Part shown: positions 11,142-49,779 of the stretch, in pieces | How positions within the stretch are numbered: position 1 is the stretch's first letter | Layout of the letters: each line of letters opens with the position of its first letter | Program-made: the position numbers and the translations under genes | Assembly: GCA_963665325.3 (NCBI GenBank) | Contig: OZ224045.1 | Location: 2,048,001-2,112,000 of the forward strand | Length of the DNA: 64,000 nt | From: Alphaproteobacteria bacterium | Lineage (GTDB): Bacteria; Pseudomonadota; Alphaproteobacteria; Bin95 | Reading direction: 5' to 3' | Notes under the pieces: model-generated | Databases searched by the model: none | The model's input: the letters and a program-made list of their open reading frames with translations, nothing else | What the model was told of the DNA's origin: nothing

Positions 11142-11312
11142 TCACTCAAACTCTGGGCGGATGTTGTCGGCGGGGCCGATCCAGAGCGGAGGAAGGACGT
11201 CGCGGATCTCGCGAGAGGACATGCCGATCTCTGCGAGGAGCTCCGGAGCGTTGAGGGGTTCGCGATCCGACGACGCGGAGGCGCGGTCGACGTCGATGGT
11301 GTCGATATACAT
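11142..11312 (-). CDS. Small hypothetical protein
   Basis: MYIDTIDVD... 56 aa; upstream GGAAAGCC motif. Confidence 0.4.
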   Translation of the reverse strand: MYIDTIDVDRASASSDREPLNAPELLAEIGMSSREIRDVLPPLWIGPADNIRPEFE

Positions 11313-11539
11313 GGCAGCCCTTTCTTCTGCTGGCCCGGTATTCCAGGCGGTTGCAGAAGCGGGGCTTTCCTCAAACTTGTTCGCGGGCGAGCGGATGTGG
11401 GGGGCGGAAACGGGTGGGGAAACAGAAAGAGCGAGACGCGGTTGAAGGGCAGTTTCGGGCGAGATTGTACGACCCGCCAGTTCCACCTTCAGGTGCAAGA
11501 ACGACTCTGGGAAGCGAGGTGACAGCGAAGTGCGGGGCG

Positions 11540-19442: not shown

Positions 19443-19554
19443 GAAGGGCCTCGCGGTCGGTGTCGGAAAGGAACGGGTGCGGGATGCCGCCCGGGCACCG
19501 GCAGATTGCTGGAATCCGGCTTTCCCAGGCTTGGTGCGGCGAGTGGGCCGGCGG

Positions 19555-21816: not shown

Positions 21817-22197
21817 TCAGCGATATGTCCAGACCGGCCAGATGTCCTGGCGGTGCTGACGGCGCTTCTCGCGGTTTGCTCCGCAGTGGGTGCAACGCTG
21901 GATCCAGTTGTGCGTGCCCTGGAGTTCGTCTTCCCAATGGTGGAGGAGGGATGCCTGGAAGATCGCCGTTGCGATTCTCGCGGAATTCCGGGACTGAAGG
22001 GCCTGCAGGATGCGGGCTTTCAGTTCCGCCTTGTCCTGCCGTGTCGGGCGCGGGGGCCAATAGCTCTGCGGGACGGCTTCGAGGACGTCCAGGAGCTGCT
22101 CCCTGGTGAGCGTGTCGAGGGCGGTTGCGGCGGTGGTCGAATCTGTGCCGCTGCACCTGGAGGCGGTGAAGGGTGCTCGGGGCGTGCAGGAGCTCAC
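21817..22197 (-). CDS. Hypothetical protein
   Basis: GTGA overlap with the upstream gene; CTHCG motif. Confidence 0.45.
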   Translation of the reverse strand: MSSCTPRAPFTASRCSGTDSTTAATALDTLTREQLLDVLEAVPQSYWPPRPTRQDKAELKARILQALQSRNSARIATAIFQASLLHHWEDELQGTHNWIQRCTHCGANREKRRQHRQDIWPVWTYR

Positions 22198-23072
22198 GGT
22201 GCTGCTCCCTTCAATGCCACGGGAACGCCGGAGAGGTGGAATGCGGCGCCGTCGGCCCAGTTGTCGAAATGCTCGAAGCAGCAGGGATGCGCGCCGGCGC
22301 CGAAGGGCGGTCCGCCTTCGAGGTACAGGAAGCGGCCGTCCTCGAGGCGCATGAAGTCGGCGGTGAAGGCCTTGCGGTCCGGGGAGTGGCGCCGGGGCGC
22401 CAGTGCCGGAAACCTGAGAGGCGTCGGCACGGCACCGATCAGCTTCTCGGTTTCGATGAGGCAGGCGGCGGCGTCCTGGCGGACCACGGGTGAGTCGGTC
22501 AGCGGGCGCTGCGGGTAGTAGCTGCTGATCGCGATGATCCGGCCGTCTTCGACGAAGACCCGGTATTCGACCGGGTAGCCGTCCACGATGCGCGCCTGCA
22601 TCCATGGTCTCGACCATGCCGGGATGACAGTGTCGGGATATTCGAGGATCAGATCTGTGGCGCGGAAGTCGTCGATATAGAAGCAGTCGAGCAGATCCTG
22701 GTGCCATTCGTGCCTGCCGGTGTCGAGGCGGTATTTCACCTCCGAGCAAGTGCAGCAGTCCCAGCGGATCATGGTGCCGGGTTCCTTGGCCGCCTCGATC
22801 TTCGTCCAGAAGGCCCGGAGCGCCCGGGTAGCCTCGTTCTCTTCGGTGCTCTCTGGGTTGTCGATGGCGACGATCAGATGCGCGATCTCGATCTTCCCGA
22901 TTTCGGTTGCCGGCACGGCTTCGACGCCGGCCGCCTTGCACACATCGAGCCAGGCGCTGAGCGAGACGGTGTTGAAGCCCGGCTGGCTGTTCCGGTCGTG
23001 GTGCGGGGAGTCGGAGTTCGCGTGCGCGTGCATGGCTTCGGCGACGTCGGGGGGAAGCTCGTTGTCAGCCAT
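22194..23072 (-). CDS. Putative ATP-grasp fold protein (R2K/Cdc123-like)
   Basis: EYRVFVEDGRIIAISSYY...FTADF...YLEGGPPFGAG. Confidence 0.65.
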   Translation of the reverse strand: MADNELPPDVAEAMHAHANSDSPHHDRNSQPGFNTVSLSAWLDVCKAAGVEAVPATEIGKIEIAHLIVAIDNPESTEENEATRALRAFWTKIEAAKEPGTMIRWDCCTCSEVKYRLDTGRHEWHQDLLDCFYIDDFRATDLILEYPDTVIPAWSRPWMQARIVDGYPVEYRVFVEDGRIIAISSYYPQRPLTDSPVVRQDAAACLIETEKLIGAVPTPLRFPALAPRRHSPDRKAFTADFMRLEDGRFLYLEGGPPFGAGAHPCCFEHFDNWADGAAFHLSGVPVALKGAAP

Positions 23073-23198: not shown

Positions 23199-24686
23199 TC
23201 AGTCCTGCAGGGAGGGCACGATGCCGGTGAGTTTCCGCTCCCATCGGGGCCCGGAAGCGGTCTCGATCTTTCGGACCAGGATGTGCGGATAGACGGGAAT
23301 GAGCTTGCGGGTGCGGAGCTCGCGCTCGAGGGGCGGGACGAGCCAGGCGTCGGCGAGCACGAGGATCTTGCGAATGCCATTCCGGCGCGCGGCCATGACG
23401 GCGATGTCGGCCCAGGCGCGGGCGCAGATCCGGACCTGCTGTTCGTTGGGCGGCTTCTCGAAGTGGATGGTTTTCGCCAACTCCTTGCGGTCGGTCTCGT
23501 CGAGCGCGACAAGGCCGAACTCGGAGGCATCGAAGGAGAGCGCGGATCGCGACAGGGTGAGAACAGGTTCCGGGGCGGCCGGTTCGTCCGGCGCCGGCGG
23601 AGGGGCTGCGCGGAGCTGATCGGGAAGCTGCAGGGCCGGCGCGGAGAGCTGGGCCTGGATGTGCTCGCGCAGGCCTCCGGCGCCGAGCGCCATGAGGTCG
23701 TCGTTGAAGTCGTTACGTTGCGGAAGGATGAGGCGGACCGGCCGTCCCTCTTCGCGGAGACGCTGTTCGAGCTTCATGGCGGCCGGGTAGCCGGACTTGT
23801 CGCGGTCCACGGCGATCAGGACCCGGCCGATGGAATCGGGAATTGCGACTCCTGCCATTACCGAGGAGGAGAGGGTCGCGATGCCGGCGCAGCCGGGGAG
23901 CGCGGTGGTGACGGAGAGCACGGTCTCGATGCCTTCCCCGACGACGATATCGTTGCGGTCCGCGCGCTCCGGGTGGAACTGGACGCCGTGACCCTTGGGG
24001 GGGCCGAGCATCTTGCGCGGCTGGGGCAGCGGGGCCTTGCCGGTGCCGCTTGCGTCCAGCCAGGTCCGGTGCACGGCGTTGATCGAGCCGTCCGCTCCCT
24101 TGATGGCTGCGACCATGGCGGGCGCCCTGGTGACGAAGCTGTCTTCGCGGTAGAGCACTTCGGGGTGGAAGCGCAGGGACTCGTGGACGATGTCCGATAT
24201 GCCGCGGGAGTGGAGGTACATTCCCGCATCGGTATCGGTGAGCGGCCTGCAGCGCTCCCAGAGGCGGCGCGCATTGACGGTGTTGGACGAAACCTCGTCG
24301 TCATCGTCGTTTGCGACATGCTGGATTGTCGGCACCGGGTCGGGTGCAGGGGAAGGCGGTTTGGACCCGGTGTTTCGGGGTGGATTCGCGATCCCGAGGA
24401 TCTGCCGCGCTTCGGCCATGGCGTGGCCGAGCTTGGGATGCCCGCGGGCATGCCGGATCAGGTCCAGGAGGTCGCCGCGATCGCCCGTGGCCTTGTCTTC
24501 CCACCGGCCGATGTTGCTGCCCTTGAGGTGCACGAAGAGGGACTTGCCCGGATTGTTGTGGACGTCGCCGGCCTGCCAGTAGTTGCCGGTTTTCCTGCCG
24601 GCCGGCAGGTATTGACGGCAGACGGCCTCGGCATGGGGTTTGAGCAGGTCCGAGAGTTGGGCGGCGGAGAGGCGGCTGTCGGTCAG
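23199..24686 (-). CDS. DUF7146 + toprim primase-like protein (copy 2, C-terminally extended), probable CTG start
   Basis: Homology to copy 1 extends upstream of the track's start (AEAVCRQYLPAGRKTGNYW); GGAGGAG-AAAA-CTG; in-frame stop 8 codons further upstream. Confidence 0.85.
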   Translation of the reverse strand: MTDSRLSAAQLSDLLKPHAEAVCRQYLPAGRKTGNYWQAGDVHNNPGKSLFVHLKGSNIGRWEDKATGDRGDLLDLIRHARGHPKLGHAMAEARQILGIANPPRNTGSKPPSPAPDPVPTIQHVANDDDDEVSSNTVNARRLWERCRPLTDTDAGMYLHSRGISDIVHESLRFHPEVLYREDSFVTRAPAMVAAIKGADGSINAVHRTWLDASGTGKAPLPQPRKMLGPPKGHGVQFHPERADRNDIVVGEGIETVLSVTTALPGCAGIATLSSSVMAGVAIPDSIGRVLIAVDRDKSGYPAAMKLEQRLREEGRPVRLILPQRNDFNDDLMALGAGGLREHIQAQLSAPALQLPDQLRAAPPPAPDEPAAPEPVLTLSRSALSFDASEFGLVALDETDRKELAKTIHFEKPPNEQQVRICARAWADIAVMAARRNGIRKILVLADAWLVPPLERELRTRKLIPVYPHILVRKIETASGPRWERKLTGIVPSLQD

Positions 24687-24705: not shown

Positions 24706-27483
24706 TCAGGCGCTCATGGAATACTGTTCTTCGGCCTCTTCCGAGCGTCGCCGGCTGGCGGCCAGTGAGGCCTCGGATGCGACCGGTGCCTGGAACCGGG
24801 GATCGCGGAGCATCGGGACTGCCGTTTCTGCCAGGACGCCAAGACTGTCTGCGCGGGTGAGGTGCAGGGCGAGGCCGGGGTCGTGTTCCGCTGCCTCGTA
24901 ATGCCGGAGCGCCCGGTCGGCATTGTCTCGCCAGGTCTTGAAATTCGGCGCTTCGTGTATGGGCACGCCCGAGCGTTCGGACCACGACTTCATGGTGCAG
25001 AGGGCCTGGCTGGCGTCGGCGATGTCCCTGGTGGCGGCTTGGGCGCGGGTCATGCGTTCGTGGCTGTCGTCGAGCGCAGTGCGCATGTTGGTGAGCCTGT
25101 CGAGAAGATCGGGGGCATGCCTGCATTCGTCGATGGCTTTGGACACGGCGGTCTTCAGCTCGTCGAACTGCGGCGCGTAGGGCAAGAGGTTCGGATCGCG
25201 GTCGACGAAGGCAAGGGCGCGGTCATAGACCTGCGAGAGCGGCTGCAGGGAGGGCGTGTAGACGCCCTGTCCGGATGACGGGACCGGGTATTCGGCGCTC
25301 GGCCGGTGGATGCTGGTCAGCGGCTCGTCGGAGAGCTCGGCGATCCGTGGCGCCATCATGTCGGGCGCCAGGATCTGCATATGCTCCTTGTGCGCCGGGT
25401 CTGCGGCCAGCTCGCGCCACCGCGCCACGGCAGCATCGCGGTCGCGAAGCCAGCCGGTGTAGCCCGGCATGGTTTCGATGGTCTGTCCGGGTTCCGAGCT
25501 CATCTTCTCCTTCAGGTCGGCAAGGCGTGCGCCGGCGTCCTCGAGGCGGGTGTGCGCATCGTGCACAGCGTCGTGTCGGCCGGCCTGGGTTTCGAGGGTC
25601 TCGTGCAGGGCCTTGAGCCGATCCCGGTATTCGGGCGGGCAGGCGCCGTCCTGCACGGCCCCGGCGACGAGATCGCGAAACCCGGCGAAACCTTCCTGAT
25701 GGGGAAGGTGGTGGATGCGGTCTCCGGACGCGGTGTACAGGGAGGCGTAGTCCATCTTGATGCGCTGCCAGGTGTCGGCAACAGCGGCCGGGTTCTCGTG
25801 GGCGGCGGCCCAGGCGTTTCCGGCGGTCTCCAGAAACTCGCGACGGGTCGTGATCCGGGGCGAGGCCAGTAGTGCCTCGGCGGGGTCAGCTGCGTCTGCC
25901 TGGGTGGTTGTCGGGGATGCTGCCCGGTTACGGTTTGCGTTCGCCCAGGCGGCCGCGCTTGCGAGCACGTCGCCGTGACAAGGCTGGGGCGCGCAATGAC
26001 AGGCAAGGTTCTTGCCGTGCAGTTCGGCAAGGTCGTCCTTCGATATCTCGCCGGCGCGGATGTTGTTCCAGAGGTGATCGCGGTATTTGGAGATCACGTC
26101 TTCGCGGGTTCCGTCCGGGCCTATGCGAAAGGGGTTCCCCCATCGCGTCCGGCGGTCGATCCGGATGGCGTCGGGCGGTGCATTCCTGAGATGCAGGACC
26201 CGGGCCATTCCCTCTTTTCGGCCGGCTGCCTGCATGTTTGAGGCATCGGTGGCGGTGCGGTGGGCGTCGGGTTCGGTGCGGTCCTTGCCGGCAGAGACGC
26301 CCTGTCCGGCTGTCAGTGAACGTCGGAGTTCCTGGAGGCCTTTCCAGGCTTCCTCCATTGTCATGGAGCCAAGGTTGAAGATCGGGATACCGTGTTCCAT
26401 GGCGATTCGGAGGCCCTGGGCGGTGCCGCCCTGGAGCTTGCCGCCCTGGGTGTAGGCAACAACGGCGTCGACTGGTTTGTCGAGGTTGGGGCCGAGCAGG
26501 ATCAGGCCGTTGCGCGCGTGCAGCTTGCGTGCGCCCTGCGTGCACCTGTCCCAGGTTGGATGGAAGCGTTCTGCAAGCTCCAGTGATTGCCGTAGGCGGT
26601 CCTGGGGGATCGGATGGCAATCGGGCCCGGAGAGGTTGTTGTAGCCGGGCCAGGGAAGCCAGATCGTGCGCTGGTCGACCGGGGTGCCGCTTGCGAAGGC
26701 GGTGTCGGAGCCGTCGGCGCCTCCGGAAGAGAGATGCCAGCCGTCTGCGGCCATTCGTCGGGCGAGCTCGGTCATGTCCGCGAGCACGGACGGGGGCATC
26801 GGCTCTCTGTCGTTCCCGCGTGACCCGATACCGGCCCAGTTCAGCTGGAAAGCATGGGTATCCAATGCAATTTCTGCCGGGTCGGTTTGCTGTTGCACGG
26901 CGGTATCGGCGGACGGAGTTGCCGGTTCGGCGCCGACGTCGGCTGGCGCCGGTGTGGGAGCGGCGGCGCTGGCGGCTTCGGCCAGTGTGGCCGGCGTCGC
27001 GGCGTTGGCAAGCTCGGGGAGGTTCGTGAGGACGCGGTCGAGGTGAGGGGCCATGTCCGGGTCTGCGCGGAGGCGTTCGACTTCGGCCAGGGTGCGCTCG
27101 CGGGCGTCGAGCCAGCTTTCGTAGTAGGGATCGTCCGCGGTTCGCAGGCCCTCGCCGTAGCTGGCGCGGAGGGCTTCGATCTCCTCGAGGCTCTGGCGGA
27201 CTTCGATATAGAGGTCGGCTACCTGCGCGCGGCGCGCGTCGATGGCCGTCAGGGCCGTGCGGAAGTCCGCCAGCTGGCTTGTGTATTCGGGATACTCGTT
27301 CTCATCGCGGAGGAGGTCTCGGGTTTCTTCGAGGAGGAACTCGAATTCGTCCGTATAGGCGATCAATTCGTGCTGGGTCCCGGCCTGTTCGCAAGCGCGC
27401 CGGTAAGCATCGGCGAGCTCGGCGTGCATGAAGTGGCCGGACGCGGACGGGTCGAGGAAGAACGCATGCAGTTCGGGTTTCAT
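24706..27483 (-). CDS. Multidomain protein: helical repeat + DprA-like SLOG + DUF4326 + two helical repeats + SMSA tail
   Basis: WAGIGSR...SGGADGSDTAF...HARN...GGTAQG (SLOG); IDRRTRWGNPF...GKNLACHCAPQPCHGDVL (DUF4326). Confidence 0.85.
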   Translation of the reverse strand: MKPELHAFFLDPSASGHFMHAELADAYRRACEQAGTQHELIAYTDEFEFLLEETRDLLRDENEYPEYTSQLADFRTALTAIDARRAQVADLYIEVRQSLEEIEALRASYGEGLRTADDPYYESWLDARERTLAEVERLRADPDMAPHLDRVLTNLPELANAATPATLAEAASAAAPTPAPADVGAEPATPSADTAVQQQTDPAEIALDTHAFQLNWAGIGSRGNDREPMPPSVLADMTELARRMAADGWHLSSGGADGSDTAFASGTPVDQRTIWLPWPGYNNLSGPDCHPIPQDRLRQSLELAERFHPTWDRCTQGARKLHARNGLILLGPNLDKPVDAVVAYTQGGKLQGGTAQGLRIAMEHGIPIFNLGSMTMEEAWKGLQELRRSLTAGQGVSAGKDRTEPDAHRTATDASNMQAAGRKEGMARVLHLRNAPPDAIRIDRRTRWGNPFRIGPDGTREDVISKYRDHLWNNIRAGEISKDDLAELHGKNLACHCAPQPCHGDVLASAAAWANANRNRAASPTTTQADAADPAEALLASPRITTRREFLETAGNAWAAAHENPAAVADTWQRIKMDYASLYTASGDRIHHLPHQEGFAGFRDLVAGAVQDGACPPEYRDRLKALHETLETQAGRHDAVHDAHTRLEDAGARLADLKEKMSSEPGQTIETMPGYTGWLRDRDAAVARWRELAADPAHKEHMQILAPDMMAPRIAELSDEPLTSIHRPSAEYPVPSSGQGVYTPSLQPLSQVYDRALAFVDRDPNLLPYAPQFDELKTAVSKAIDECRHAPDLLDRLTNMRTALDDSHERMTRAQAATRDIADASQALCTMKSWSERSGVPIHEAPNFKTWRDNADRALRHYEAAEHDPGLALHLTRADSLGVLAETAVPMLRDPRFQAPVASEASLAASRRRSEEAEEQYSMSA

Positions 27484-27951
27484 GGCTGGATGCTCTCCGG
27501 GGCGATTGCCGGGGACCGGGCCGCGGATCGGCGATCGGCGAGTGTTTCGATGGTTCGCGCCAGGGCCCGGACGCGCTTCTCCTGCCGGTCGGGAAAGTGG
27601 GCCGCTCCGAGTGTTTGGCGGATCAGGCGGTGGAGGGCGTCGAAGCCGTCCTGGCGGGGGATAAGGTTGAAGTCGCCGCCGGCTGCTTCGTACATGCGGC
27701 CGTAATCGGCCTTGATCTTTTCCCAGGTGCGCTCCGGCGTGTCGTCCATGTGCCGGAACCAGCGTTCGACGGCGCGGCGGAAGATGCGGTCGAAATCAAT
27801 GAGGTGAGTCTTGTCGGGTGCGGGGCAGGCGCGTTCGCAGTCGGCCTTGAAGGTTTCGAGTATGGCGATGCCGACTCGCGGAGGCACCAGGCGGTCATTC
27901 TTGATGATATCCATGAGGCGCGAGGCATACGCGGGCGGCTTCAGCTCGCGT
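27480..27951 (-). pseudogene. 3' fragment of a helical-repeat family gene interrupted by transposon copy 2
   Basis: Removing the element and one GCGT copy restores ...AGIQWIR-ELKPPAYASRL-MDIIKNDR in frame; contains TWEKIKADY. Confidence 0.85.
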
Positions 27952-28224
27952 TGAGTGTGCTCTCGGTATCTGATGGCGGGATGGTCACGTTGTTCGATGG
28001 TTTTCAGGCGTCGGGCCGGGCGTGACGGCGGGGGTGTCGGACGGCCGTCGGCGCGTCAAGCCGCTTCGCGGCTCCTGCGCTGCGCTCCGGCCCTTCGGGT
28101 GACCCGCCGCCGTCCCTCCGACGGAGTGCATCCATGGCCGTAAGCAAGCTTCCGGCCACGGGCCGGCCGCTTTACGCAGTGTGACAATGGGAGCGGTGTT
28201 ACCCGTTACCGTTACCCTCTCTCC

Positions 28225-29223
28225 CTAGGGGTTCGAGGCGGTAACGGTTTTCGGTAACGTGTCCCTGCGGTCGTTGCCGTTGAGGGCGGCGAGGCGGTAT
28301 CCGCCTTCGGATGCGCGCTCGACGCGTCCTTCGCGGACGAGCCTGTGCAGCGCCTCGGCGACGGTTGCGGGCCGGGTTGCCGCGCGCTCGCGGATCCGGC
28401 GCTGGGAGAGCGGCGCGTCGGCGTCGGCGAGGGCCTGCAGGATGCGCCGTTCGGGGGTATCCGGCTCCGGCGCCTGGTCTTCCGGCGTCTCGCGCAACCG
28501 CAGGGCGGGGCGCTCGTCGTCGTCGGCGAGTTCGATCTCGAGGTCTTCGAGGCCAGGGGCGTCGCGATGCTCGACGGTCATGAGGATCTGGCGGTCTCGC
28601 CGGCGCAGGTACAGATTCGAATCGCCCCAGGCGTGAAGTTCGCTGCTGCCGCGCAGCGCCTGCCCGGGCCGGGAGCCGCCGCTCTTTCGTGCGTGATGGA
28701 CGAGGAGGACGGCGGTTTCGAAGCGGCGCTGTATGTCGCGCAGGAAGCCCAGCATGGGGGCGACCTCGGCGACGGTATTTTCGTCGACGCCGTGCAGGCG
28801 CACGAGGGGGTCGAGGACGACGAGGCGGGGTGAGACGCGCTCCACCGTCTCGACCAGGCGCTGGCGATCGGCGCGATGGTCGAGACGCAGCGTGGGCACG
28901 TCGATGACGGCGATGTCGAGGGTCTCGAACGCGGTGCCTGCCGCCTTTGCGATGCCCTGGAGGCGTGCGCGCACGATATGGCCGGCGTCCTCGGCGGCGA
29001 ACAGCAGCACGGGGCCGCTTGCGGCGGGACGGAAGTGGCGCAGGCAGGGGACGCCGGCGGCGACCGCGACGGCGATGTCGAGTGCGAGGAAGGATTTGCC
29101 GCACTTGGGCTCGCCGCCGACGATGCCGACGCCCTGCTCGGACCACAACGCCTCGACCATCCAGCGGCGCGCCTGGGGGCGCTCTTCGAGCTCCGCCGGC
29201 GCCCGTGTCGGGAAGCCCTTCAC
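28225..29223 (-). CDS. AAA_25 / RepA-like helicase-wHTH (transposon copy 2)
   Basis: Same translation as 6062-7060. Confidence 0.88.
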   Translation of the reverse strand: MKGFPTRAPAELEERPQARRWMVEALWSEQGVGIVGGEPKCGKSFLALDIAVAVAAGVPCLRHFRPAASGPVLLFAAEDAGHIVRARLQGIAKAAGTAFETLDIAVIDVPTLRLDHRADRQRLVETVERVSPRLVVLDPLVRLHGVDENTVAEVAPMLGFLRDIQRRFETAVLLVHHARKSGGSRPGQALRGSSELHAWGDSNLYLRRRDRQILMTVEHRDAPGLEDLEIELADDDERPALRLRETPEDQAPEPDTPERRILQALADADAPLSQRRIRERAATRPATVAEALHRLVREGRVERASEGGYRLAALNGNDRRDTLPKTVTASNP

Positions 29224-30053
29224 CGCCGCGCCCTCCTCGGCTTGGCGGGTTCGCCCAGGGTCTCGATGAAGAGCTTCTCGTCGAGGACCTCGCGCTCCTT
29301 CTCGGCGGCGGCGGCGAGCAGGGCGTCGGCCATGACGGTGAGCGCCCGCGGGTTGCCGTCGGCATGGGCGACCAGGGTGTCCTTGAGGCCCGCGGTCATG
29401 AGGCCGGGATTGCCGGCCTGCTCGATCAGATGGTCGAGCAGGGCCGCGAGGTCGCCGGCCTCGGCCTTGGTCATGACCAGGCGCTGGCGGATGCGCGAGG
29501 CGATGGGCTGCAGATCGGGCTGGCGGAGCTTGTCGAGCAGGCGCGTGTCGCCGGCGAGGACGACCGAGAGGATGGCGCGCGAGTCGAAGTCGGTCGAAGC
29601 CAGCAGGCGGATCTCGGAGAACACCGAGGGCAGCAGCTCCTGGGCCTCGTCGACGAGCACGACGGGGCGCATGCGGGTATCGTCGACATGGGCGAGCCAG
29701 CGCTCGCGCAGGCTTTTGAAGCTGGCCCAGCGGTTGTTGTACATCAGGTCGACGCCGAACATCTCGCCGATCTCGCGGTAGAAGTCGGACAGCCGGGAGG
29801 AGGGATGGGTGATGGCGGCGATGCTGAGCCCCTCGCAGCGGCCGAGACGGTCGGCGAGCAGGCGCAACGCCACACTCTTTCCGGCGCCGGGCTCGCCGGC
29901 GATCAAGGCGAAGCCGCCCTGGCGCACCAGGTGGCGCTCGATCCTGAGGCAGAAGCTGTCGACGGCAGGCGTCGCCATGAGACTGTCGACCGGCAGGTCG
30001 GTGGCGAAGGGGTTCCACTTGAGCCCGTAGAAGGTGAGCAGTTCCCGGTTCAT
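29220..30053 (-). CDS. ExeA/TniB-like AAA+ ATPase (copy 2)
   Basis: Same translation as 7057-7890. Confidence 0.9.
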   Translation of the reverse strand: MNRELLTFYGLKWNPFATDLPVDSLMATPAVDSFCLRIERHLVRQGGFALIAGEPGAGKSVALRLLADRLGRCEGLSIAAITHPSSRLSDFYREIGEMFGVDLMYNNRWASFKSLRERWLAHVDDTRMRPVVLVDEAQELLPSVFSEIRLLASTDFDSRAILSVVLAGDTRLLDKLRQPDLQPIASRIRQRLVMTKAEAGDLAALLDHLIEQAGNPGLMTAGLKDTLVAHADGNPRALTVMADALLAAAAEKEREVLDEKLFIETLGEPAKPRRARR

Positions 30054-31525
30054 GGCGCATCTCCCCGATCTTCGTCCTCGCCCGGACCGGGCGTCTTGTC
30101 ATGGGGCAGCCAGGCCGGCGGCAGGCCGGTTGCGGCCTGGGCGTCGAGCATGCCCTTGAGCAGCGGCGGAAGTTCCCCCGTCCCCGCGCCGCCATTGCCA
30201 TCGTTGCCGCCGGGGCCGGCGGGACGGCGCACGCCATCGGCGTTGCCGCGCTTGTCGAGGGGGTACAGCGTGCACAGGCGCTCGCCGCCTCGACCGTCGA
30301 TCAGATCGACGCTGGCGAGGTTCCAGCGCGCGTAACGGATCCAGGCCTCGCGCAGGTGGCGCCACGGCTGTGGCACCTGGTAGCGGATGCCCTCGACCGA
30401 GACGGTGCCGTCCGAGCGCCTGAGCGTGCGCTTCCTGGTGATGCGGAAGGCCGCCTTGAGCTCGGCCGAGCCGGGGCAGGATCTCGACGCGTCGACGCTC
30501 CCGGCCAGGCGTTGATGCGGCGTCATGCCGAGCTCGCGGTGCTTGCGGCGGTGATAGTCCTGCTCCAGCCAGGCGATGGTGGCGTCGTTGAGCATCTTCA
30601 AGGTAAGCGCGTCGACGCCTTCGAGCTGAGCCATCAGGCGCGATTCGACCGTGCCCCAGAACGACTCGATCTTGCCGTTCTGATGGGGGCTGTAAGCGAG
30701 CGTCGTGACCCCCGCGATGCCGAGCCGGTGCAACCCCTCCTCGACCTCGCCCGCGGTCATCGCCGCGCCGTTGTCGGTCAGCAGGGACCTCGGCAGACCG
30801 CGCTTCATGAAGGCCTGGCAAAGGCCGTGGACGAACACCTCGGCGGTCTCGGCGAGGTACCACTGAAGGTGGCAGCCGAGGCGCGAGTGGTCGTCGAGGA
30901 AGCCGAGCAGGATCGGCGTCTTCCACTCGCCCGAGGCGGTCAGCACGCGACGCTTGGCGCTGTGCATGTCGGCGTGCCACAGGGCGTGAGAGCGCGAGAC
31001 CTCGTAGCTCAATACCTCGCGGGCTTCGACCGCCGGCCTGGCCTCGCTCTCATGCCACTTGCGCCGGCGCTTGCGTACCAGCCCGCGAGCCCGCATCGCC
31101 CGGGTCAGCGTCGCGTAGGACGGTATCGGGCCGAGCTCGGGATCGGCCTCGACCCGCGCGGCCAGATTCTCGTGATGAAGCTGCGCCGACCACGACGGAT
31201 GCGCCCGGTACTGCTCGTGCAGCGCCTCGATCAGCGTCGGCGACATCGCGCGCGGGCGCCCGGCATCGGCGCGCGGGCGCCGCTTGAGCGCCCCCACCGG
31301 ATCGTTGTCCGCCGCCCGCGCCTGGTAGTACCAGCGCTCGATCGTGGACACCGCGAAGCGCACCCGGCCCTTGCCGGACGGGTGATCCCACTCGCGTTCG
31401 GCAAGCCGCTCAAGCTCGGCGTGCAGCCGCCCCGCCGGCGGCGGCGAGGCCAGAAGCGGCCCGACCACCGCGAAGCGCAACCGCGCCCACCGGTCGCGAC
31501 GCTCGCTCCCGTCGTTGCTGTTCAT
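30050..31525 (-). CDS. DDE transposase (copy 2)
   Basis: Same translation as 7887-9362. Confidence 0.93.
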   Translation of the reverse strand: MNSNDGSERRDRWARLRFAVVGPLLASPPPAGRLHAELERLAEREWDHPSGKGRVRFAVSTIERWYYQARAADNDPVGALKRRPRADAGRPRAMSPTLIEALHEQYRAHPSWSAQLHHENLAARVEADPELGPIPSYATLTRAMRARGLVRKRRRKWHESEARPAVEAREVLSYEVSRSHALWHADMHSAKRRVLTASGEWKTPILLGFLDDHSRLGCHLQWYLAETAEVFVHGLCQAFMKRGLPRSLLTDNGAAMTAGEVEEGLHRLGIAGVTTLAYSPHQNGKIESFWGTVESRLMAQLEGVDALTLKMLNDATIAWLEQDYHRRKHRELGMTPHQRLAGSVDASRSCPGSAELKAAFRITRKRTLRRSDGTVSVEGIRYQVPQPWRHLREAWIRYARWNLASVDLIDGRGGERLCTLYPLDKRGNADGVRRPAGPGGNDGNGGAGTGELPPLLKGMLDAQAATGLPPAWLPHDKTPGPGEDEDRGDAP

Positions 31526-31573
31526 TCCGGCATCCCCCTCGCTGCTTCGTGGAGGTGCCGATGATGCGGTGCC

Positions 31574-32188
31574 CTATCCGTGCATCATAGAAACGCTTTC
31601 TGCGGGCGAAGCCGGACCTGCGCCGAGCGCGCAAAAGCCGGTCCACGGCATCAGCCAGACCAGGCTCCGCAGCAGCCGCGAGCGGAAGCCACGGCCCCGC
31701 ATGATGCGCAGCAGCCGGCGCAGCGGCGCCTCTTCGGGCGGCGCCGCCAGCTCGCCCCGTCTCGCCTGCCACTCCCGGGTCAGCGGGAAGGCTTCCAGCC
31801 ACCAGCGCCGCCAGCGCTTCAGCGTCGAGGCCGGAACCCCGCACCGCCGCGCGATCGTCTGCAACCGCGCGCCGCCGGCCACAGCCAGCGCACTCACCAC
31901 AAGGAACAGCGCCCCGACGTAAAAGCGCCTGCCGAAGAAACGCACCGACGGCGGCTTCACGCGGCGTCGGCACACCGAACAGCACAGGCTGAAGCGCCGA
32001 ACGTCGTTCCGAAGATTCGCCGCCAGACCGTGCGGCTTGCGCGGGTAGCTCGCGCTGTGAAGCGCGCCGCCGCAGCGCGGGCAACCCGCCGCCCGGCACG
32101 CCTCCGCCTCGGCCGCGTCGACCTGCTTCAGAAAATCCCAAACCCGGGCGTTGGAGAGATTGGAGTGCCGGAACAGCTTGTGCGACAT
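31574..32188 (-). CDS. Zn-finger + HTH protein (copy 2)
   Basis: Same translation as 9411-10025. Confidence 0.8.
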   Translation of the reverse strand: MSHKLFRHSNLSNARVWDFLKQVDAAEAEACRAAGCPRCGGALHSASYPRKPHGLAANLRNDVRRFSLCCSVCRRRVKPPSVRFFGRRFYVGALFLVVSALAVAGGARLQTIARRCGVPASTLKRWRRWWLEAFPLTREWQARRGELAAPPEEAPLRRLLRIMRGRGFRSRLLRSLVWLMPWTGFCALGAGPASPAESVSMMHG

Positions 32189-32335
32189 TGGGGCCGTCTC
32201 AGGTTGATGTCACTGTCACCGAGACAAGCCCTCCGGCGGCCTTCTTGCAAGATCGCCGGGGGGCACCCAATCCAAAACCTCGATTAATCCGAGCCGATCA
32301 GCCCCTGATCGCCGCTGAAAGCCTGCGCCCGCTCA

Positions 32336-32794
32336 GCGTATCCATTGGATGCCGGCCCTCGCACCGGGTCCCGGTTCTGGCTCGTCGCCATCATGCTGTT
32401 GCCGGTCGGGCGAAGACGGGGATGTGGGGGCGTCGTCGTCAAGTGGTCTGGGGCTCTCGGCCCAGGGTCCGAAGAAGACAGGCTCGGTGTCGGGCTCGAG
32501 CTGGATGGCGAAGCGGAGACGGTCGTGGTCGTAGACTTCGAACGTGAGGGTGGAGGCGTGTTTGATGAGCTCGTGGTTGGTGTCGTAGTAGGGTTCCGTG
32601 TCGTCTTCTTCGTAGTCGATGCGGCGTTGGTTCTGGCGCCAGCGCTGAAGATCGGTGAGACATTCCTCGCGGGTGGCATAGGTGCGGATGTCTTCCGGCG
32701 GGTCGATATCGTCCGGGAAGTCGGGATCGATTTCGGTGAAGACCGTGGTGAACGGTCGTTCCGGGTCGAGACGAATGTGGAAGGGGAGCGGCAT
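32336..32794 (-). pseudogene. 5' fragment of the gene interrupted by transposon copy 2
   Basis: MPLP...DPERPF...YATREECL.DL.RW...TFEVY; paralogous to the N-terminus of 32829-34508. Confidence 0.85.
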
Positions 32795-32828
32795 CGGTTC
32801 GTTTCCGGGAAGGGGGCGTTGCGGCCGG

Positions 32829-34508
32829 TCAGGCGCTCATGGAGAACGACTCCTCCCGGGAGTCGGCGCGGGCTTCGGCGCGGGCCCGGCGCTGAGCGGC
32901 GACTTCCTCGGGAGAGGGGGGCTTCTGGAAGCGGTCCTCGCGAAGGAACGAGATAGCGGTCCGGGCGGACTCCTCGGAGGCGCCGGCGCGCTTGAAGTGG
33001 GGGGCGAGGCGGGGATCCTGCAGCATTGCTTCGCTACGGGATGCGGCCCGGTCGGCCTTGTCGCGCCAGGCGCTGAACCCTGGAGCCTCGTGAATGGGCT
33101 GGCGGCTCGATTTCGACCAGTTGATGTGCCGGACCAGTTCGTCGGACATGTCGGTGAGGTCTTGGGCGGCCTCGACCGCGGTGACTTTCCTCTGGATGGC
33201 GACTTCGAGCTGGGCGGCCAGGGACTCGATATGAGCGAGTCTCTCCGGGATGCCCGCGCATGTTTCGCGGGTCTGTCGAAGGGTGAACTGCAGACTGTCG
33301 AAGCCCTGCGAATAGGGAAGAAGGTTGGCGTCGCCGTCAACGGACTCCAGGGCGCGGTCGTAGTCTGCGGCGAGCCGGTTCATGGGAGGATTCTGGACCG
33401 GCTCGCGGGTTATCGAGAGGACGCTTGGATGAAAGACCGTAGGGATGGCGGGGTCAGCCAGGCGGTCGATCTGAAGCTGGAGGTTCGGGAGGAAGGGCAG
33501 GTGCTCGCTGAGAGCCGGATCTGCGCGGATCTCCGTCCAACCTGCGATGGCCTCGTTTCGGTAGGCGAGCCATTCGAAGAAGTCGGGCGCATATTGAAGG
33601 GCTCTGACGCCGACGCCGGAGTCTCTGGCTTGTTGCAGGAGTTTGTCGAGGCGCAGGCAGGCAGAGTGGGCGCTTCCGCAGGTGGTGGCGACTTTGGCGC
33701 GGTTGTCCTTGCCGGTGTCGAGGGTATGGAGCAGGGCCTTGAGCTTGTCCTCCTGGCGGTCGGGGTAGTGAGCGGTGTCGAGCGCCTTCCGGGTGAGGTA
33801 GTGAAGATCCTCGAAGCCCTCCTGGTGGACGAGGCCGGCAAGATTGTCGCCGGCTGCCTGGAACAGCGCCGCGTAATCGGCCTTGATGGTTTCCCAGGTG
33901 TTTTCCGGTGTTTCGGTCATGGTCCGGAAATGCTGTTCGGCAGCGCGCTTGAGGAGGCGTTCGGTCTGGCTGCGGTCGATGTGGCCACCCTCCGCGCGGG
34001 CCCGGTCGCCCATGTCTTCGAATGTCTTGATGATGGCGCGGCGGGTCGCAGGAGCAACTTCGTCGGGGTCGGAGAGGTAGCCCAGGAACTGACCGATGGA
34101 TGAGGTCTTGTCCTGTGCATACATCCAGATAGCGGTTTCACGTCTCGGGTCGCCCGCGTCTTGCGCGATGTAGTCATCGACCTGGATCTGCGACCGGGCT
34201 GCGGATGCGCGCGCCCAGGGACCGGCTTCGCGGTGGCCGAGCCGGTCTATGTCGAGCTGGAGGCGGAGTTCGCCGTTCTCGTAAACCTCGAAGGTGTAGG
34301 TGTTGTCGTCGCCCTGGTATCCGACGCCTAGATGGTAATAGCGGTCCTGGCGGACCAGGCTGGAGTCCTGCCAGCGATCGAGGTCGGCAAGGCACTCTTC
34401 GCGGGTCGCGTATCGGCGGATTTCGTCGGGATCGTGGAAGCTGGTGGCCTTGCGGACCGTGATGAACGGCCTGTCGGGGTCCGGGGTCACGCCTTCGGGA
34501 AGCGGCAT
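32829..34508 (-). CDS. Unknown N-terminal domain + two helical repeats + SMSA tail
   Basis: TWETIKADY...QEGF; LLPYSQGFD...PIHEAPGFSAWRD; ends REESFSMSA. Confidence 0.85.
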   Translation of the reverse strand: MPLPEGVTPDPDRPFITVRKATSFHDPDEIRRYATREECLADLDRWQDSSLVRQDRYYHLGVGYQGDDNTYTFEVYENGELRLQLDIDRLGHREAGPWARASAARSQIQVDDYIAQDAGDPRRETAIWMYAQDKTSSIGQFLGYLSDPDEVAPATRRAIIKTFEDMGDRARAEGGHIDRSQTERLLKRAAEQHFRTMTETPENTWETIKADYAALFQAAGDNLAGLVHQEGFEDLHYLTRKALDTAHYPDRQEDKLKALLHTLDTGKDNRAKVATTCGSAHSACLRLDKLLQQARDSGVGVRALQYAPDFFEWLAYRNEAIAGWTEIRADPALSEHLPFLPNLQLQIDRLADPAIPTVFHPSVLSITREPVQNPPMNRLAADYDRALESVDGDANLLPYSQGFDSLQFTLRQTRETCAGIPERLAHIESLAAQLEVAIQRKVTAVEAAQDLTDMSDELVRHINWSKSSRQPIHEAPGFSAWRDKADRAASRSEAMLQDPRLAPHFKRAGASEESARTAISFLREDRFQKPPSPEEVAAQRRARAEARADSREESFSMSA

Positions 34509-34541
34509 TTCCGTATCTCCGGTTGGGGTGGGGTCGGCCGG

Positions 34542-37500
34542 TCAGGCGCTCATGGAGCGGCCTTCTTCCATGCTCTCCTGCCGGGCCTGCTGCAGGGCTG
34601 CCGGCAGTTGGGGAACGATCGGAAGCTGGAAGCGCTCGTCGCGCAGGAGGGCGACGGCGACTTCGGTTGACTCGGCCGAGGCGCCGGCGCGTTCGAGGTG
34701 CGGCGCGAGCTTGGGGTCGTTGCGCATGGTCTCGCAGCGCGAGACGATCGCATCGGCGCTGTCCCGCCACTCCTTGAAGTTGGGAGCTTCGTGAACGGGC
34801 CGCTCGGTCTTCGCGGCCCACTGCTGGAAGCCGAGGACCTGGGTGCAGGCTTCGGAGAGATCGCGGGCCGCGGCGCCGGCTTCCGCCTGGCGTTGGCTCG
34901 ATGCCTGGAGCCGGCCGTCCAGTTTCTGGAGGTCCTTCACCTGGTCGGGTTGCGAGACGAGCTCGCCGGCGACTTGCCGGACGGTCTGGCGGAGCTCGTC
35001 GAAGTGAGGCGAGTAGGCGACGAGGTTCGGGTCCCGGTCGACGAAGGCGAGCGCGTGCTCGTAGAGATTGTTGACGCGCTCCATGTGCCTGTTGCCGGTC
35101 TCGAGGGCGGGATGGAACAGCGACGGCAGGTCGGGATTGGAGAGGCGCTCGATTTCGGCCTTCATGCCGTCCTCGCCGAGCCGGGGCAAATGATCCTTGA
35201 GCTCGGGGTTTCGGGCTGCGTTGTTCCACTGGGCAACGGTCGCATCGCGGTCTCTCAGCCAGGCGATGAAGCCCGGGGCGAGCTCGATCGGGCGTCCGGG
35301 CTCGGCCGCCACCCACTCCTTCAGGCCGTCCAGCCGATCCGTGAGGCCTTCTATGCGGCCCTGGAGGGTCTGGACGGTATCCCGGCGTTCTGCCTCGGTA
35401 TCGAGGTCGTCCCGGAGTTTGTGAAGACGGGGCGCGTGCTGTTTCGGGTGGTTCCCGGTCGCTATGGCGGTGGTGACCAGGCCGCGGAACTCATCGAAGC
35501 CTTCCTGGTAGGGGAGAAGGTGGGCCCGGTTGCCGGCGGCCTGGAAGATGGTCGTGTGGTCGGCCTTGATCTTCTCCCAGGTGCCGTCCGGATCGGGCTG
35601 GAGAACCGGCGTGGGCAGGTTTGCCATTTCGGCAGCGGGGTCGACGTGCCAGGTCGATCTTCCGGCGCGCTGGATCATGTCCTCGAGGATTGCGCCCCTG
35701 GCGCCGAAGGCGACGAGGCCCTGGATCGACAGTTTCTCGAAGATCTTCTCGTTCCGCATGATCGGGGCCTTGCCCTGGGTATGCGGGCCCCATTCCGGCT
35801 GCGCGGCGATCTGGGGGACGTCGTTACGCTCGGCCCATTCGGCGAAGAGCTTGTCGTAGCCCTTGTCGTTTCCGCCATGGACCAGGACCGTGTCGGGATA
35901 TTTGGCGAGCACGCTGTCGAGATAGCGGTCGACAACGGGGCGGTGCGGCTCTTCCTGCTCGGGGGCCAAGGCGCCGCCGGCGGCGACGACATACTGGCCG
36001 TGGCGGTAGATGGCTTCGTGCCGGTGCTGTTCGACCTGCTTCAGGAGGTTCTCGGCCTCGAGTGTCGCGAGCGTGTGGGTATGGTCGAGCCTGGCGTATC
36101 CGTCCGGGTTCCAGGGCTGCCGGGCTTCGCGCTGGTAGACTTTCCCGGCCTGGAGGAAGAGTTGGTTGAAGACGTCGCGGCGCATATCGTAGTTGCGGGA
36201 GAGTGCGTCCCTGGTCTCTTGAGCCAGGTCGGTATCGCGCGCAGTATCCCTGGCTTCGCCGTTGAGGCGTCCCAGCTGCTTCTTGAAAACATTGACGACG
36301 CCCCAGAGCAGTTGCTCGCGTTCGTCGTTGAGCTGGTAGCCGTCGGCGGTAACGCGTTCGGCCAGAAGGTTGATGGCGAAGGCCAGGGTTTCCCGGGGCG
36401 TTTCGATCCTGTCGGGGTGCTCGGGGTCTGCGGCGCCAGCGGCGGTTGCGGCGCGGCCGGTGCGGCGCTCGCTGCGCGCGGGATCGGTGTCGCCTGCGTC
36501 CAGCTCCGGACGGAATTCGTTGTGGTCGAGCGTGTAGCCGGGCATGAGGCGGCCGCGGGTGGCATGGAGCTGGGCGGCGCTCTCGATCTCCGCGATGGGG
36601 ACGCGGGCGGCCCTGGCCTTGGCGACGAGGTCGCCCGGCACGCCGGTCCGGGCGCCGGGGAAGACGACGAGGCCGTTGATGGCGACTCCTTCCTCCTTCC
36701 GGCCCTTCTCGTCCATGTGGTGAACGATGCGGGTGTTTCGGGCCCTGAGTTCGGCCTGTAAGTCCGGGGCATCGAAGTCGGGCTTCACGGCCTGGAGCGG
36801 CACGTTGTACTGGGTCGCCCATTCGGCTGCATGGCGGTCGGCGCCGGTCTTGTTGCCTCCCGTAACGACGACGAGGTCGGGGTGATCCTTCAGCAGCCGG
36901 GAGAGGGTTCCCCAGACGAGAGCGTGCCCGGGGCGCTGTCCGGAGACGACGGCTATGCGGGTGCCTTCGGCGCGTTCGAGCCAGGTGCGGGCCTTGAGGT
37001 GGTCGGTGAGCGATACCTTGGGCGCGCGGGCCGGCTCGGTAAGGGAGAAGGTGGACTTGTTGGATTCGCGCGCGCGCCAGGCGCTGTCGGTCAGCGTCTC
37101 GTAGGCGATGGATGCGGTATTGGTGAGGCGGTCGAAGGCGAGCGCGCGGTCGTAAAGGTTCCGGGCCTCGTCAGTCTTCTGTGTGAGTTCGTTGTCGCGG
37201 ACTTCGGATCCGTCCTGGGAATGGATGAGCTCGCGGATTGTATGGGCCATGCCTTCGATGCGCTTGTGCAGGCGTTCCGACTGGGCGTTGAGGACGTAGA
37301 CGAAGCCCCAGAGGATCTGGTCGCGATCCTCGGCGAGCGGCGAGCCGTCGGGCGCGAGCCTGGTCGCGATGATGTTCATGACCTCTTCGACGGCGGTGTG
37401 TGCGTCGTCCGGGTCGTAGACGGCCCGGGTGTCGGGCTCGCCGCGGGCGGGCCCGAGGCCGAAGATGCGGGCCTGGTTCATCCAGTCGCCGACGTCGGAG

Positions 37501-37658
37501 CCGAGGGCGCGGTCGGTCGGGTCGGTCCGGTCGGGATCGTCCTGGTCGTAGGGGTCGGGTTCGTCGACGTCCGGCCCCGCTCCTACCGGCCCGAATTGTT
37601 CGAATTCGTCGGGATCTTCGATTTGGAAGGGATCGGTATCAATGTTGGGATTATCCAT
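34542..37658 (-). CDS. Tandem DUF2493 (YspA-like SLOG) protein + two helical repeats + SMSA tail
   Basis: Two units of [EDRDQILWGFV helical region + HPDLVVVTGGNKTGADRHAAEWA / YPDTVLVHGGNDKGYDKLFAEWA]; ends EEGRSMSA. Confidence 0.88.
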   Translation of the reverse strand: MDNPNIDTDPFQIEDPDEFEQFGPVGAGPDVDEPDPYDQDDPDRTDPTDRALGSDVGDWMNQARIFGLGPARGEPDTRAVYDPDDAHTAVEEVMNIIATRLAPDGSPLAEDRDQILWGFVYVLNAQSERLHKRIEGMAHTIRELIHSQDGSEVRDNELTQKTDEARNLYDRALAFDRLTNTASIAYETLTDSAWRARESNKSTFSLTEPARAPKVSLTDHLKARTWLERAEGTRIAVVSGQRPGHALVWGTLSRLLKDHPDLVVVTGGNKTGADRHAAEWATQYNVPLQAVKPDFDAPDLQAELRARNTRIVHHMDEKGRKEEGVAINGLVVFPGARTGVPGDLVAKARAARVPIAEIESAAQLHATRGRLMPGYTLDHNEFRPELDAGDTDPARSERRTGRAATAAGAADPEHPDRIETPRETLAFAINLLAERVTADGYQLNDEREQLLWGVVNVFKKQLGRLNGEARDTARDTDLAQETRDALSRNYDMRRDVFNQLFLQAGKVYQREARQPWNPDGYARLDHTHTLATLEAENLLKQVEQHRHEAIYRHGQYVVAAGGALAPEQEEPHRPVVDRYLDSVLAKYPDTVLVHGGNDKGYDKLFAEWAERNDVPQIAAQPEWGPHTQGKAPIMRNEKIFEKLSIQGLVAFGARGAILEDMIQRAGRSTWHVDPAAEMANLPTPVLQPDPDGTWEKIKADHTTIFQAAGNRAHLLPYQEGFDEFRGLVTTAIATGNHPKQHAPRLHKLRDDLDTEAERRDTVQTLQGRIEGLTDRLDGLKEWVAAEPGRPIELAPGFIAWLRDRDATVAQWNNAARNPELKDHLPRLGEDGMKAEIERLSNPDLPSLFHPALETGNRHMERVNNLYEHALAFVDRDPNLVAYSPHFDELRQTVRQVAGELVSQPDQVKDLQKLDGRLQASSQRQAEAGAAARDLSEACTQVLGFQQWAAKTERPVHEAPNFKEWRDSADAIVSRCETMRNDPKLAPHLERAGASAESTEVAVALLRDERFQLPIVPQLPAALQQARQESMEEGRSMSA

Positions 37659-38189: not shown

Positions 38190-38230
38190 AAGAAAAAGCC
38201 CCGCGGGCCGTAGAGGCCGGCGGGGCTTCT
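38190..38230. terminator. Terminator hairpin between convergent genes
   Basis: AAGCCCCGC/GCGGGGCTT stem with A-tract. Confidence 0.6.
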
Positions 38231-38251: not shown

Positions 38252-38506
38252 TCAATTGAAGAGCAGCGGCTGGCCTTCCATGGAGGCGGTCATGAGGGCA
38301 GTCCAGATATCGCGGGACATGCCGAGCCTCGCGTTGAGCTTGTCGCACAGCCTTTCGGCGTCTTCGAGGCTGCGGGTCGAAAGGCTGGTGGAGATATAGC
38401 CGGGGTGTCCAAGGAAGACGATCCGGATTTCCTGGGGTTCGTCGGGGAAGTCGTAGGCGGGGCAGAAGGCGTAGGTTGGGTTGGCCTCGATCTGTTGCAG
38501 ACTCAT
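38252..38506 (-). CDS. Hypothetical protein, paralogue of 12703-12975
   Basis: See paralogue alignment. Confidence 0.65.
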   Translation of the reverse strand: MSLQQIEANPTYAFCPAYDFPDEPQEIRIVFLGHPGYISTSLSTRSLEDAERLCDKLNARLGMSRDIWTALMTASMEGQPLLFN

Positions 38507-49506: not shown

Positions 49507-49779
49507 TGAGTGTGCTCTCGGTATCTGATGGCGGGATGGTCACGTTGTTCGATGGTTTTCAGGCGTCGGGCCGGGCGTGACGGCGGGGGTGTCGGACGGC
49601 CGTCGGCGCGTCAAGCCGCTTCGCGGCTCCTGCGCTGCGCTCCGGCCCTTCGGGTGACCCGCCGCCGTCCCTCCGACGGAGTGCATCCATGGCCGTAAGC
49701 AAGCTTCCGGCCACGGGCCGGCCGCTTTACGCAGTGTGACAATGGGAGCGGTGTTACCCGTTACCGTTACCCTCTCTCC

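Follow-up and report, generated by a model that had tools for sequence, protein, structure and literature searches.

What could be the function of some 350 residues shared by the C-termini of three neighbouring proteins whose N-terminal parts differ? This question is raised by a locus on C1:2048001-2112000 of the five-contig, 5.58-Mb genome of an alphaproteobacterium (GenBank assembly GCA_963665325.3), a stretch of 64,000 nucleotides that is referred to here as the window. The three genes, designated p1038, p559 and p925 according to the length of their products, form a cluster in that part of an integrated conjugative element which serves DNA processing. Judging from sequence comparisons and structure predictions, we consider it reasonably probable that the shared region (the module), together with the tip of the tail that follows it, serves as a recruitment and translocation signal for a type IV secretion system (T4SS), resembling the BID domain yet distinct from it in sequence; the three proteins would probably be injected into recipient cells during mating. 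An earlier reading of the DNA letters alone (the sequence-only reading) had proposed a family of conjugative T4SS effectors composed of cargo and delivery domain, an interpretation that is supported in its core, with corrections concerning the machine, the tail and the relaxase of the window. The three proteins and their parts are encoded as follows (basis of assignment in brackets; HMM, hidden Markov model; ORF, open reading frame).

34542-37658, minus strand: p1038 (1038 aa), two cargo repeats (each helical plus YAcAr/DUF2493 SLOG), two-unit module, tail EEGRSMSA (ORF, Pfam, PHROG)
36771-36947, minus strand: first YAcAr domain of p1038, residues 238-296 (best Pfam stretch)
35652-36026, minus strand: second YAcAr-like region of p1038, residues ~545-669 (best stretch of PHROG 289; second Pfam stretch)
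35133-35594, minus strand: unit A of p1038 (unit HMM, alignments)
34644-35132, minus strand: unit B of p1038, terminal (unit HMM, alignments)
34545-34643, minus strand: tail of p1038 with RFQxP, Arg/Gln-rich linker, acidic patch and SMSA (sequence)
32829-34508, minus strand: p559 (559 aa), N-terminal domain (~1-150), module, tail REESFSMSA (ORF, BLASTP, HMM)
33429-33914, minus strand: unit A of p559 (alignments)
32919-33392, minus strand: unit B of p559 (alignments)
24706-27483, minus strand: p925 (925 aa), tail EEQYSMSA (ORF, Pfam, BLASTP, PHROG, HMM)
26989-27483, minus strand: additional N-terminal unit of p925 (BLASTP, HMM)
26335-26841, minus strand: DprA-like SLOG domain of p925 (PHROG)
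25960-26181, minus strand: DUF4326 of p925 (Pfam)
25309-25788, minus strand: unit A of p925 (HMM, alignments)
24769-25248, minus strand: unit B of p925 (HMM, alignments)

The relationship of the three C-termini is evident from pairwise comparison by BLASTP, which aligned residues 571-925 of p925 with 693-1038 of p1038 (40% over 355 aa, E 3e-79), residues 151-559 of p559 with 649-1038 of p1038 (37% over 412 aa, E 2e-73), and p559 with p925 (35% over 390 aa, E 8e-61), while the three-way alignment of the C-termini attains a mean column identity of 62%. The module of ~350 aa is in turn composed of two units of ~150 aa each: when a module alignment of 24 rows was cut into unit A and unit B, hhalign matched the two profiles with 99.8% probability (E 8.7e-28, 151 columns). 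A third, more divergent unit resides at the N-terminus of p925, where residues 3-150 match residues 842-990 (E 3.8e-9) and 706-827 (E 2e-4) of p1038. The sequence-only reading had described this two-copy C-terminus, the three SMSA ends, the extra copy in p925 and a partial copy in a gene split by a transposon (see below), all of which hold. AlphaFold models predict the unit to be all-helical and built on a central helix of 48 residues; the predicted local distance difference test (pLDDT) is 88 for the two-unit module and exceeds 90 over most of unit A of p1038, whereas it drops to 51-63 in the last ~35 residues of that protein, and unit B with the tail yields a pLDDT of 90 and a predicted template-modelling score (pTM) of 0.77. 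The number of units per protein varies: the p925 orthologue in L019 (L019:11882-15862, 1327 aa) possesses two N-terminal units and thus four in all, and in genome G013 an open frame of 1596 aa (C5:3793502-3799340) contains at least four unit matches.

At the sequence level the module is new, as the sequence-only reading had supposed. Pfam gave no match at E<=10 for the three modules, for the relaxase C-terminus or for the N-terminal unit of p925; NCBIfam gave none for the module, the ESM Atlas no usable one, and the best E-value among PDB sequences was 0.33. Similarly, tblastn of the module and of the C-terminus of the TrwC relaxase against 72,556 plasmids was without a match, and a literature search, with subscription journals and supplements outside its reach, yielded no prior description. 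A profile search of 1.84 billion representatives revealed 32 clusters carrying the unit at E<=0.001, 18 of which reach E<=1e-30. One of these clusters, P0020 (448 aa), shows a variant tail context, in which an N-terminal unit fragment is followed by a long Glu/Arg/Gln-rich region and the end EGWSMSR. Among 37 genomes of the same family and order (the family-level and order-level surveys comprise the same 37), the module occurs in ten including the present one, all belonging to one genus, and in none of 400 other genomes sampled across the class, for which the top 5 candidates per genome were scored; a related-locus search seeded with A1 returned four loci. This patchy occurrence inside one genus fits a mobile element.

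The strongest indication of the role of the module comes from the other proteins that carry it. In all 17 long members the module is C-terminal, ending at most 13 residues from the C-terminus, and its carriers include relaxases of two unrelated families, Ti-type TraA and TrwC/MobF, in line with the comparison to BID-bearing relaxases drawn by the sequence-only reading. P0006, a Ti-type TraA (MobA_MobL plus AAA_30, 1101 aa), bears the two-unit module at residues 746-1096, while its residues 1-740 align with classical TraA proteins by tblastn; in the TraA of Rhizobium gallicum (1100 aa), the part corresponding to the P0006 module is occupied by the Pfam BID domain PF17841 (residues 855-950, 4.6e-42). 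P0026 is a TrwC/MobF relaxase with several units, and in the present genome the C-terminus of the TrwC relaxase/helicase at C1:1224538-1229444 matches the unit HMM, with E 1.8e-19 for its last unit. Two overlapping open frames, of 700 aa and 1180 aa, make up this gene, reflecting either a frameshift or two genes; its C-terminal part displays about four unit-like repeats and the end SEGGGMKL. Five further weak matches of the unit HMM in the genome concern four TrwC relaxase genes, two of which, copies of 1445 aa, are matched at identical coordinates, and one ORF without family; other TrwC relaxases of the genome end in GGGMTP and GGGISA.

The remaining members fuse the module to Macro, NADAR, DprA-like SLOG, DUF4326 or YAcAr domains, with architectures such as Macro plus DprA-like plus NADAR or DprA-like plus DUF4326 plus NADAR in relatives. 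On C3 of the present genome, a protein of 1787 aa (C3:484744-490107) combines NADAR, YAcAr and a weak DprA-like domain with divergent units and the tail RGMGMSA, and a p1038 paralogue (C3:611959-615192) ends in RAMSA. The orthologue of the 1787-aa protein in G008 (1821 aa) shows units at E 5e-22 and 9e-9 and is encoded 6.6 kb from a DotA gene. In a maximum-likelihood tree of 23 of the 24 module rows, one having been left out for low coverage, two well-supported clades (100/99) each comprise relaxase modules together with modules from YAcAr and SLOG/DUF4326/NADAR cargo. Hence, modules group by system and not by cargo, which is the pattern expected of a system-specific address tag. Moreover, the combination of a constant C-terminus with variable N-termini corresponds to the layout of T4SS substrates.

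The module is followed by a tail with a recurrent order of elements throughout the family, namely a conserved RFxxP, a variable linker rich in Arg and Gln, a short acidic patch and a conserved tip; it is the last four residues that are conserved, whereas the preceding linker varies. Among 29 members, which are homologues so that the counts are not independent, Ser, Gly or Ala is found at position -4 in 28 and an aliphatic residue at -1 in 28. A hydrophobic residue occupies position -3 in 27 of the 29 (19% of 7751 genome ORFs), and this residue is Met in 21 (2.4% of the same ORFs). In Legionella signals, a hydrophobic residue at -3 is known to be important. The last 12 residues carry a net charge of zero or below in 24 of the 29 members and of -2 to -4 in the three window proteins, which have 3-4 acidic residues at positions -5 to -16. 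The tip pattern [SG]M[SGAK][AVMIL]L? terminates just eight of 7637 ORFs genome-wide, six of them relevant: p1038, p559, p925, the module-bearing relaxase, the window relaxase with its SMSA-like end EEDTGMSIL, and the 1787-aa NADAR plus YAcAr protein. P0006 ends in ESSISFRM. As to the two SSB genes of the window (10604-11374 and 5133-5633, both on the minus strand), the first product retains the usual acidic DSDPVPF tip, whereas the second ends in LDESYPMAA, akin to the YSMSA tips of module proteins, and may, by this resemblance, be another transferred protein.

The secretion system linked to these proteins is of type IVB (IncI/Dot-Icm-like, I-type) and not of the VirB/D4 type, which corrects the BID-like signal envisaged by the sequence-only reading: the layout, the sharing with relaxases and the conjugative element stand, whereas the machine differs and the tails are acidic or neutral instead of basic. 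The mating apparatus is located upstream of the window on the same element, 40-55 kb from the operon, and encompasses DotA/TraY (1.6e-68), DotB/TraJ (1.2e-74), DotD (2e-19) and IncI TraI (PF16932, 1.7e-56), in addition to a TraG-type coupling protein at about C1:2031078-2033024 and PilN, PilP, PilS, PilV/shufflon-like and prepilin-peptidase genes. Pfam PF03135 detected no VirB4 in the genome, and none of the seven VirB4-type loci recognized by TIGR00929 lies near the window. Exactly two DotA/DotB loci exist in the genome, and module proteins are encoded on both replicons; the second locus is 10-13 kb from the gene of the 1787-aa protein and 107 kb from the p1038 paralogue. Across the 37 related genomes, which are kin and hence not independent, DotA is present in 9 of 10 module-positive and in 3 of 27 module-negative genomes.

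Taken together, the ~350-aa region may be understood as an address tag for a conjugative T4SS, consisting of two all-helical units and a disordered tail with a small-Met-Ser-aliphatic end, and placed both on DNA-piloting relaxases and on cargo enzymes. In the donor, the protein would dock, by means of its terminal unit and tail, on the coupling-protein complex that belongs to the type IVB machine of the element, and its passage to the recipient would accompany the transferred strand or immediately precede it. There, SLOG, DUF4326, NADAR and Macro cargo would act on nucleotide, NAD or ADP-ribose signals and marks, by binding or by erasing them, or alternatively load onto the incoming single strand; in either case the cargo would help the element to establish before its own genes are expressed.

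Several observations weigh against such an address tag. The window's own relaxase has no unit detectable by the unit HMM or hhalign (probability 0.33%), so that of the two features sought in its C-terminus only the SMSA-like tail was found. Foldseek against the PDB together with VIA-align gave, for both models, only generic helical or spectrin-like matches and no BID entry among the matches listed. The DotA contrast is weak within the genus alone (9 of 10 versus 3 of 7), and three DotA-positive genomes lack the module while one module-positive draft lacks DotA. The linkage of module and type IVB genes is loose, with distances of 40-150 kb (38-147 kb) in G000, G008, G013 and G016, and in G009, G010 and G012 more than 1 Mb separates the module from the nearest DotA match, or the two lie on different contigs. 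In addition, the module-bearing TrwC relaxases lie more than 600 kb from any match to a type IV coupling protein, VirB4 or DotA; they may belong to mobilisable elements. Within the element, neither a DotO/TraU-type ATPase nor a DotM/TrbA homologue was identified, nor was an IcmSW homologue, and the frequent transposon copies described below suggest that this copy of the element may be decaying or damaged. Finally, the acidic patch of 3-4 residues is shorter than in the Legionella peptides given in the available part of PMC5802825.

Of the alternative explanations, the one that survives best, albeit an unlikely one, regards the unit as a very divergent BID, in which case the class would be known and both function and mechanism would be those of Bartonella and Rhizobiales. 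According to the available parts of PMC6509941 and PMC5675462, the combination of BID and tail is common to relaxases (TraA), PezT/Zeta toxins and Beps, and conjugation is accompanied by transfer of VbhT. The likeness to the BID of Beps, VbhT, PezT/Zeta and TraA (PDB 4YK1-4YK3) is considerable: both domains are helical, of 100-150 aa, single or in tandem and alphaproteobacterial, both are C-terminal on relaxases as well as on unrelated cargo and precede a short unstructured tail, and in both the tree shows copies from relaxases and from cargo intermingled. In the Ti-type TraA, the module even takes the place of the BID region of classical TraA; tandem and non-terminal copies occur, as with BIDs, and the length of the 48-residue central helix is near the 70 Å given for BID in the accessible text of PMC6509941. 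On the other hand, no sequence relation is detectable. PF17841 and PF18543 match neither P0006 nor P0026 at E<=1, and a six-frame search of the whole genome gave E 0.525, below the cut-off, as the best value for PF17841 and nothing for PF18543. Against the 99.8% of the unit A-unit B control, hhalign assigned a probability of 0.17% to A1 versus one TraA, and of 1.5% (E 0.034) to the 24-row module versus four TraA C-termini, a weak alignment with a shared 'DPxLk' motif that leaves room for remote homology, made with four rows only, so that a deeper BID profile might do better. The fold search gave generic helical matches and listed no BID entry, which says little either way. Furthermore, the BID tail is basic, while the module tail is acidic or neutral with a small-Met-Ser-aliphatic end; BID is linked to VirB/VirD4-like (type IVA) systems, while the module adjoins a type IVB system; and BID cargo consists of FIC or PezT toxins, while module cargo consists of SLOG, DUF4326, NADAR and Macro enzymes. 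Hence, at the level of sequence, membership of the module in the BID family is not supported.

A signal for a type IVB machine is better compared with other known substrates. As stated in the available part of PMC5802825 (Table 2), the C-termini that DotM reads in type IVB systems are acidic and Glu-rich; EESSRFTM and EESRNSASV are examples of such peptide tails, with which the ends ESSISFRM (P0006) and EEGRSMSA (p1038) may be compared. The E-block signals of Dot/Icm, as far as that source describes them, share with the present tails the adjoining type IVB machine and resemble them in a disordered C-terminus in which an acidic patch, shorter here, precedes Ser-rich and hydrophobic last residues; they differ in that a large folded module precedes the tail here and that the present system is conjugative, acting from bacterium to bacterium. 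The closest functional precedent is the SogL primase of IncI R64, which is transferred (PMC5512222, available part). Along with TraC1 of RP4, ParB, SSB and PsiB of the F plasmid and the polyvalent proteins, Sog of R64 is, in the accessible portions of PMC5512222 and PMC8406263, multi-domain, conflict-related and encoded in the neighbourhood of genes for primase, SSB and ParB, with a presumed early action in the recipient. The proteins of the window likewise combine several conflict-related domains per polypeptide on a conjugative element with DNA-processing neighbours, as is characteristic of polyvalent proteins; YAcAr, DUF4326 and NADAR are not mentioned in the available part of the polyvalent-protein paper (Iyer et al. 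2017). In contrast to the module proteins, those transferred and polyvalent proteins are not known to have a common, recognisable delivery module shared with a relaxase.

Folded recognition domains for coupling proteins are familiar from other systems, too. The XVIPCD of Xanthomonas T4SS toxins is such a domain of ~100 aa or more. According to the available text of PMC6509941, the TSA of the TraI relaxase is another one. By their descriptions, XVIPCD and the TSA/TSB of TraI are set apart from the module: they have no relation to it in sequence or in host, XVIPCD is not known from relaxases, and TSA occupies an internal position in TraI. The layout of polymorphic toxins was considered as well and rejected, as there the constant trafficking part stands at the N-terminus and variation is found at the C-terminus, the reverse of the arrangement observed here.

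Still less probable than a divergent BID is a module that acts in DNA processing, as a relaxosome scaffold that would tether enzymes to the relaxase, the primase, SSB or the strand, or would oligomerise them, in either donor or recipient. Very improbable is the notion of the SMSA-type tip as a C-terminal degradation tag that keeps the proteins scarce in the donor, with the shared region being the mere trace of a gene that was duplicated recently: the tips resemble known protease tags in being short and non-polar, and the three genes are adjacent paralogues, yet these paralogues are just 35-40% identical with unrelated N-termini, the module is also carried by relaxases and by proteins encoded elsewhere in the genome and in other genomes, and a degron has no need of 300 structured residues.

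If the module is indeed a T4SS address tag, it would constitute a second, independent case of the principle of a relaxase-derived delivery domain plus cargo known from BID, tied in this instance to a conjugation machine of type IVB, from which type the effector injectors of Legionella and Coxiella descend. It would render testable how I-type coupling complexes choose their protein substrates, and whether enzymes clearing ADP-ribose, NAD or nucleotide immune signals are delivered in advance by conjugative elements. As a search key, the tag could lead to further transferred proteins, and in this genome it already finds the 1787-aa polyvalent protein and the relaxases; the direct reach of the finding is narrow because the family is rare, with its 32 clusters and essentially one genus among the genomes sampled. 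A bolder version, possible but on the doubtful side, holds that the unit is a new family at the fold level and not a BID, and that, together with the acidic tip with Met at -3, it forms the substrate code of conjugative type IVB systems. Relaxases and swappable enzymes erasing NAD, ADP-ribose and nucleotide signals would then be injected before gene expression to disarm the immunity of the recipient, as a living example of how Dot/Icm-like effector repertoires could arise by movement of a relaxase C-terminus onto new cargo.

The cargo of the three window proteins differs, as the sequence-only reading had it. In p1038, Pfam recognizes YAcAr/DUF2493 in two stretches (E 7.9e-30); the N-terminus of p559 matches no family in the Pfam and PHROG comparisons; p925 contains DUF4326 (Pfam, E 1.8e-25) and, at residues 215-383, a DprA-like region matching PHROG 768 at 1e-44 and no Pfam model at E<=0.1. 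The G+C content at third codon positions is 0.79-0.85 in the three genes, and p1038 orthologues in L019, L020 and L022 are 79-86% identical. Between p559 and p925 lies the gene that is split by a transposon, further copies of which occur in the window.

32333-32794, minus strand: N-part of the split gene, resembling the p559 N-terminus (38% identity to p559 1-101)
27480-27914, minus strand: C-part of the split gene, with the first half of a unit, ending ESIQP, no SMSA tail (overlaps the p925 start by 4 bp)
27952-32335, no strand assigned: 4384-bp transposon copy interrupting the split gene, with rve transposase (491 aa), AAA_22 (277 aa) and helix-turn-helix (204 aa) proteins (sequence comparison)
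5789-10172 and 49507-53890, no strand assigned: other window copies of the 4384-bp transposon (sequence comparison)

The C-part of the split gene is 41% identical to residues 151-271 of p559 (BLASTP, E 6e-28), and its N-part is 81% identical to the intact orthologue in L019. Intact orthologues (P0022, L019) measure 302-305 aa, and those of P0019, P0022 and L019/L020 likewise end in ESIQP or ESLPP. The three transposon copies of the window are equal in length and differ by at most 3 mismatches in the compared stretches; perfect 5-bp target duplications flank two of them (CGAGG at 5789-10172, TATGG at 49507-53890), while at 27952-32335 just four of five flanking bases repeat. With its termini TGAGTG...GCTCA, the transposon occurs in at least five further copies within 80 kb upstream (L014, L032, L033), and the whole suggests a burst of recent transposition within the element.

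The window is G+C-rich (0.60-0.71), and a minus-strand array of mobile-element DNA-processing genes spans it from a ParB-like gene to the relaxase. Downstream of the ParB-like gene follow a 431-aa ORF, RadC, a C5 methylase, a Strawberry-notch helicase, p1038, p559, the split gene and p925, and then two DUF7146/Toprim primases, an R2K ATP-grasp-like ORF, a PolIII-beta-like ORF, a Macro protein, the two SSBs and a TrwC/MobF relaxase.

54466-56838, minus strand: ParB-like gene (start of the array)
39385-43839, minus strand: Strawberry-notch-type helicase (AAA_34 plus Helicase_C_4), conserved upstream neighbour (Pfam, synteny)
23199-24533, minus strand: DUF7146 plus Toprim_3 primase, next gene after p925 (Pfam; synteny kept in L019, L020 and L022)
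2-1894, minus strand: N-terminal part of the TrwC/MobF relaxase (whole gene C1:2045218-2049894, C-terminus outside the window)

From p1038 to the primase, the spacing of 33 bp, 34 bp, a 4-bp overlap and 172 bp is operon-like, so that the cluster runs on into the toprim primase as the sequence-only reading had stated; a scan for promoters and terminators yielded nothing above shuffle expectation. Three related genomes maintain the synteny of RadC, methylase, helicase, an 84-aa ORF, module genes, primase, R2K and second primase, and differ in how many module genes and how many extra N-terminal units they have. The 84-aa ORF (38252-38506, minus strand) has the helicase and p1038 as its neighbours, belongs to no assigned family and shows 87-99% identity in the three relatives, and a terminator-like hairpin (38197-38209, minus strand) is located 3' of it. 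Between the two primases, an ORF at 22194-23072 (minus strand) has sub-threshold R2K ATP-grasp matches and is conserved in relatives. Equally conserved in relatives is a 574-aa ORF (18417-20141, minus strand), which matches the phage ATPase family PHROG 1297 (6e-90) and overlaps the frame of the second primase (19555-20538).

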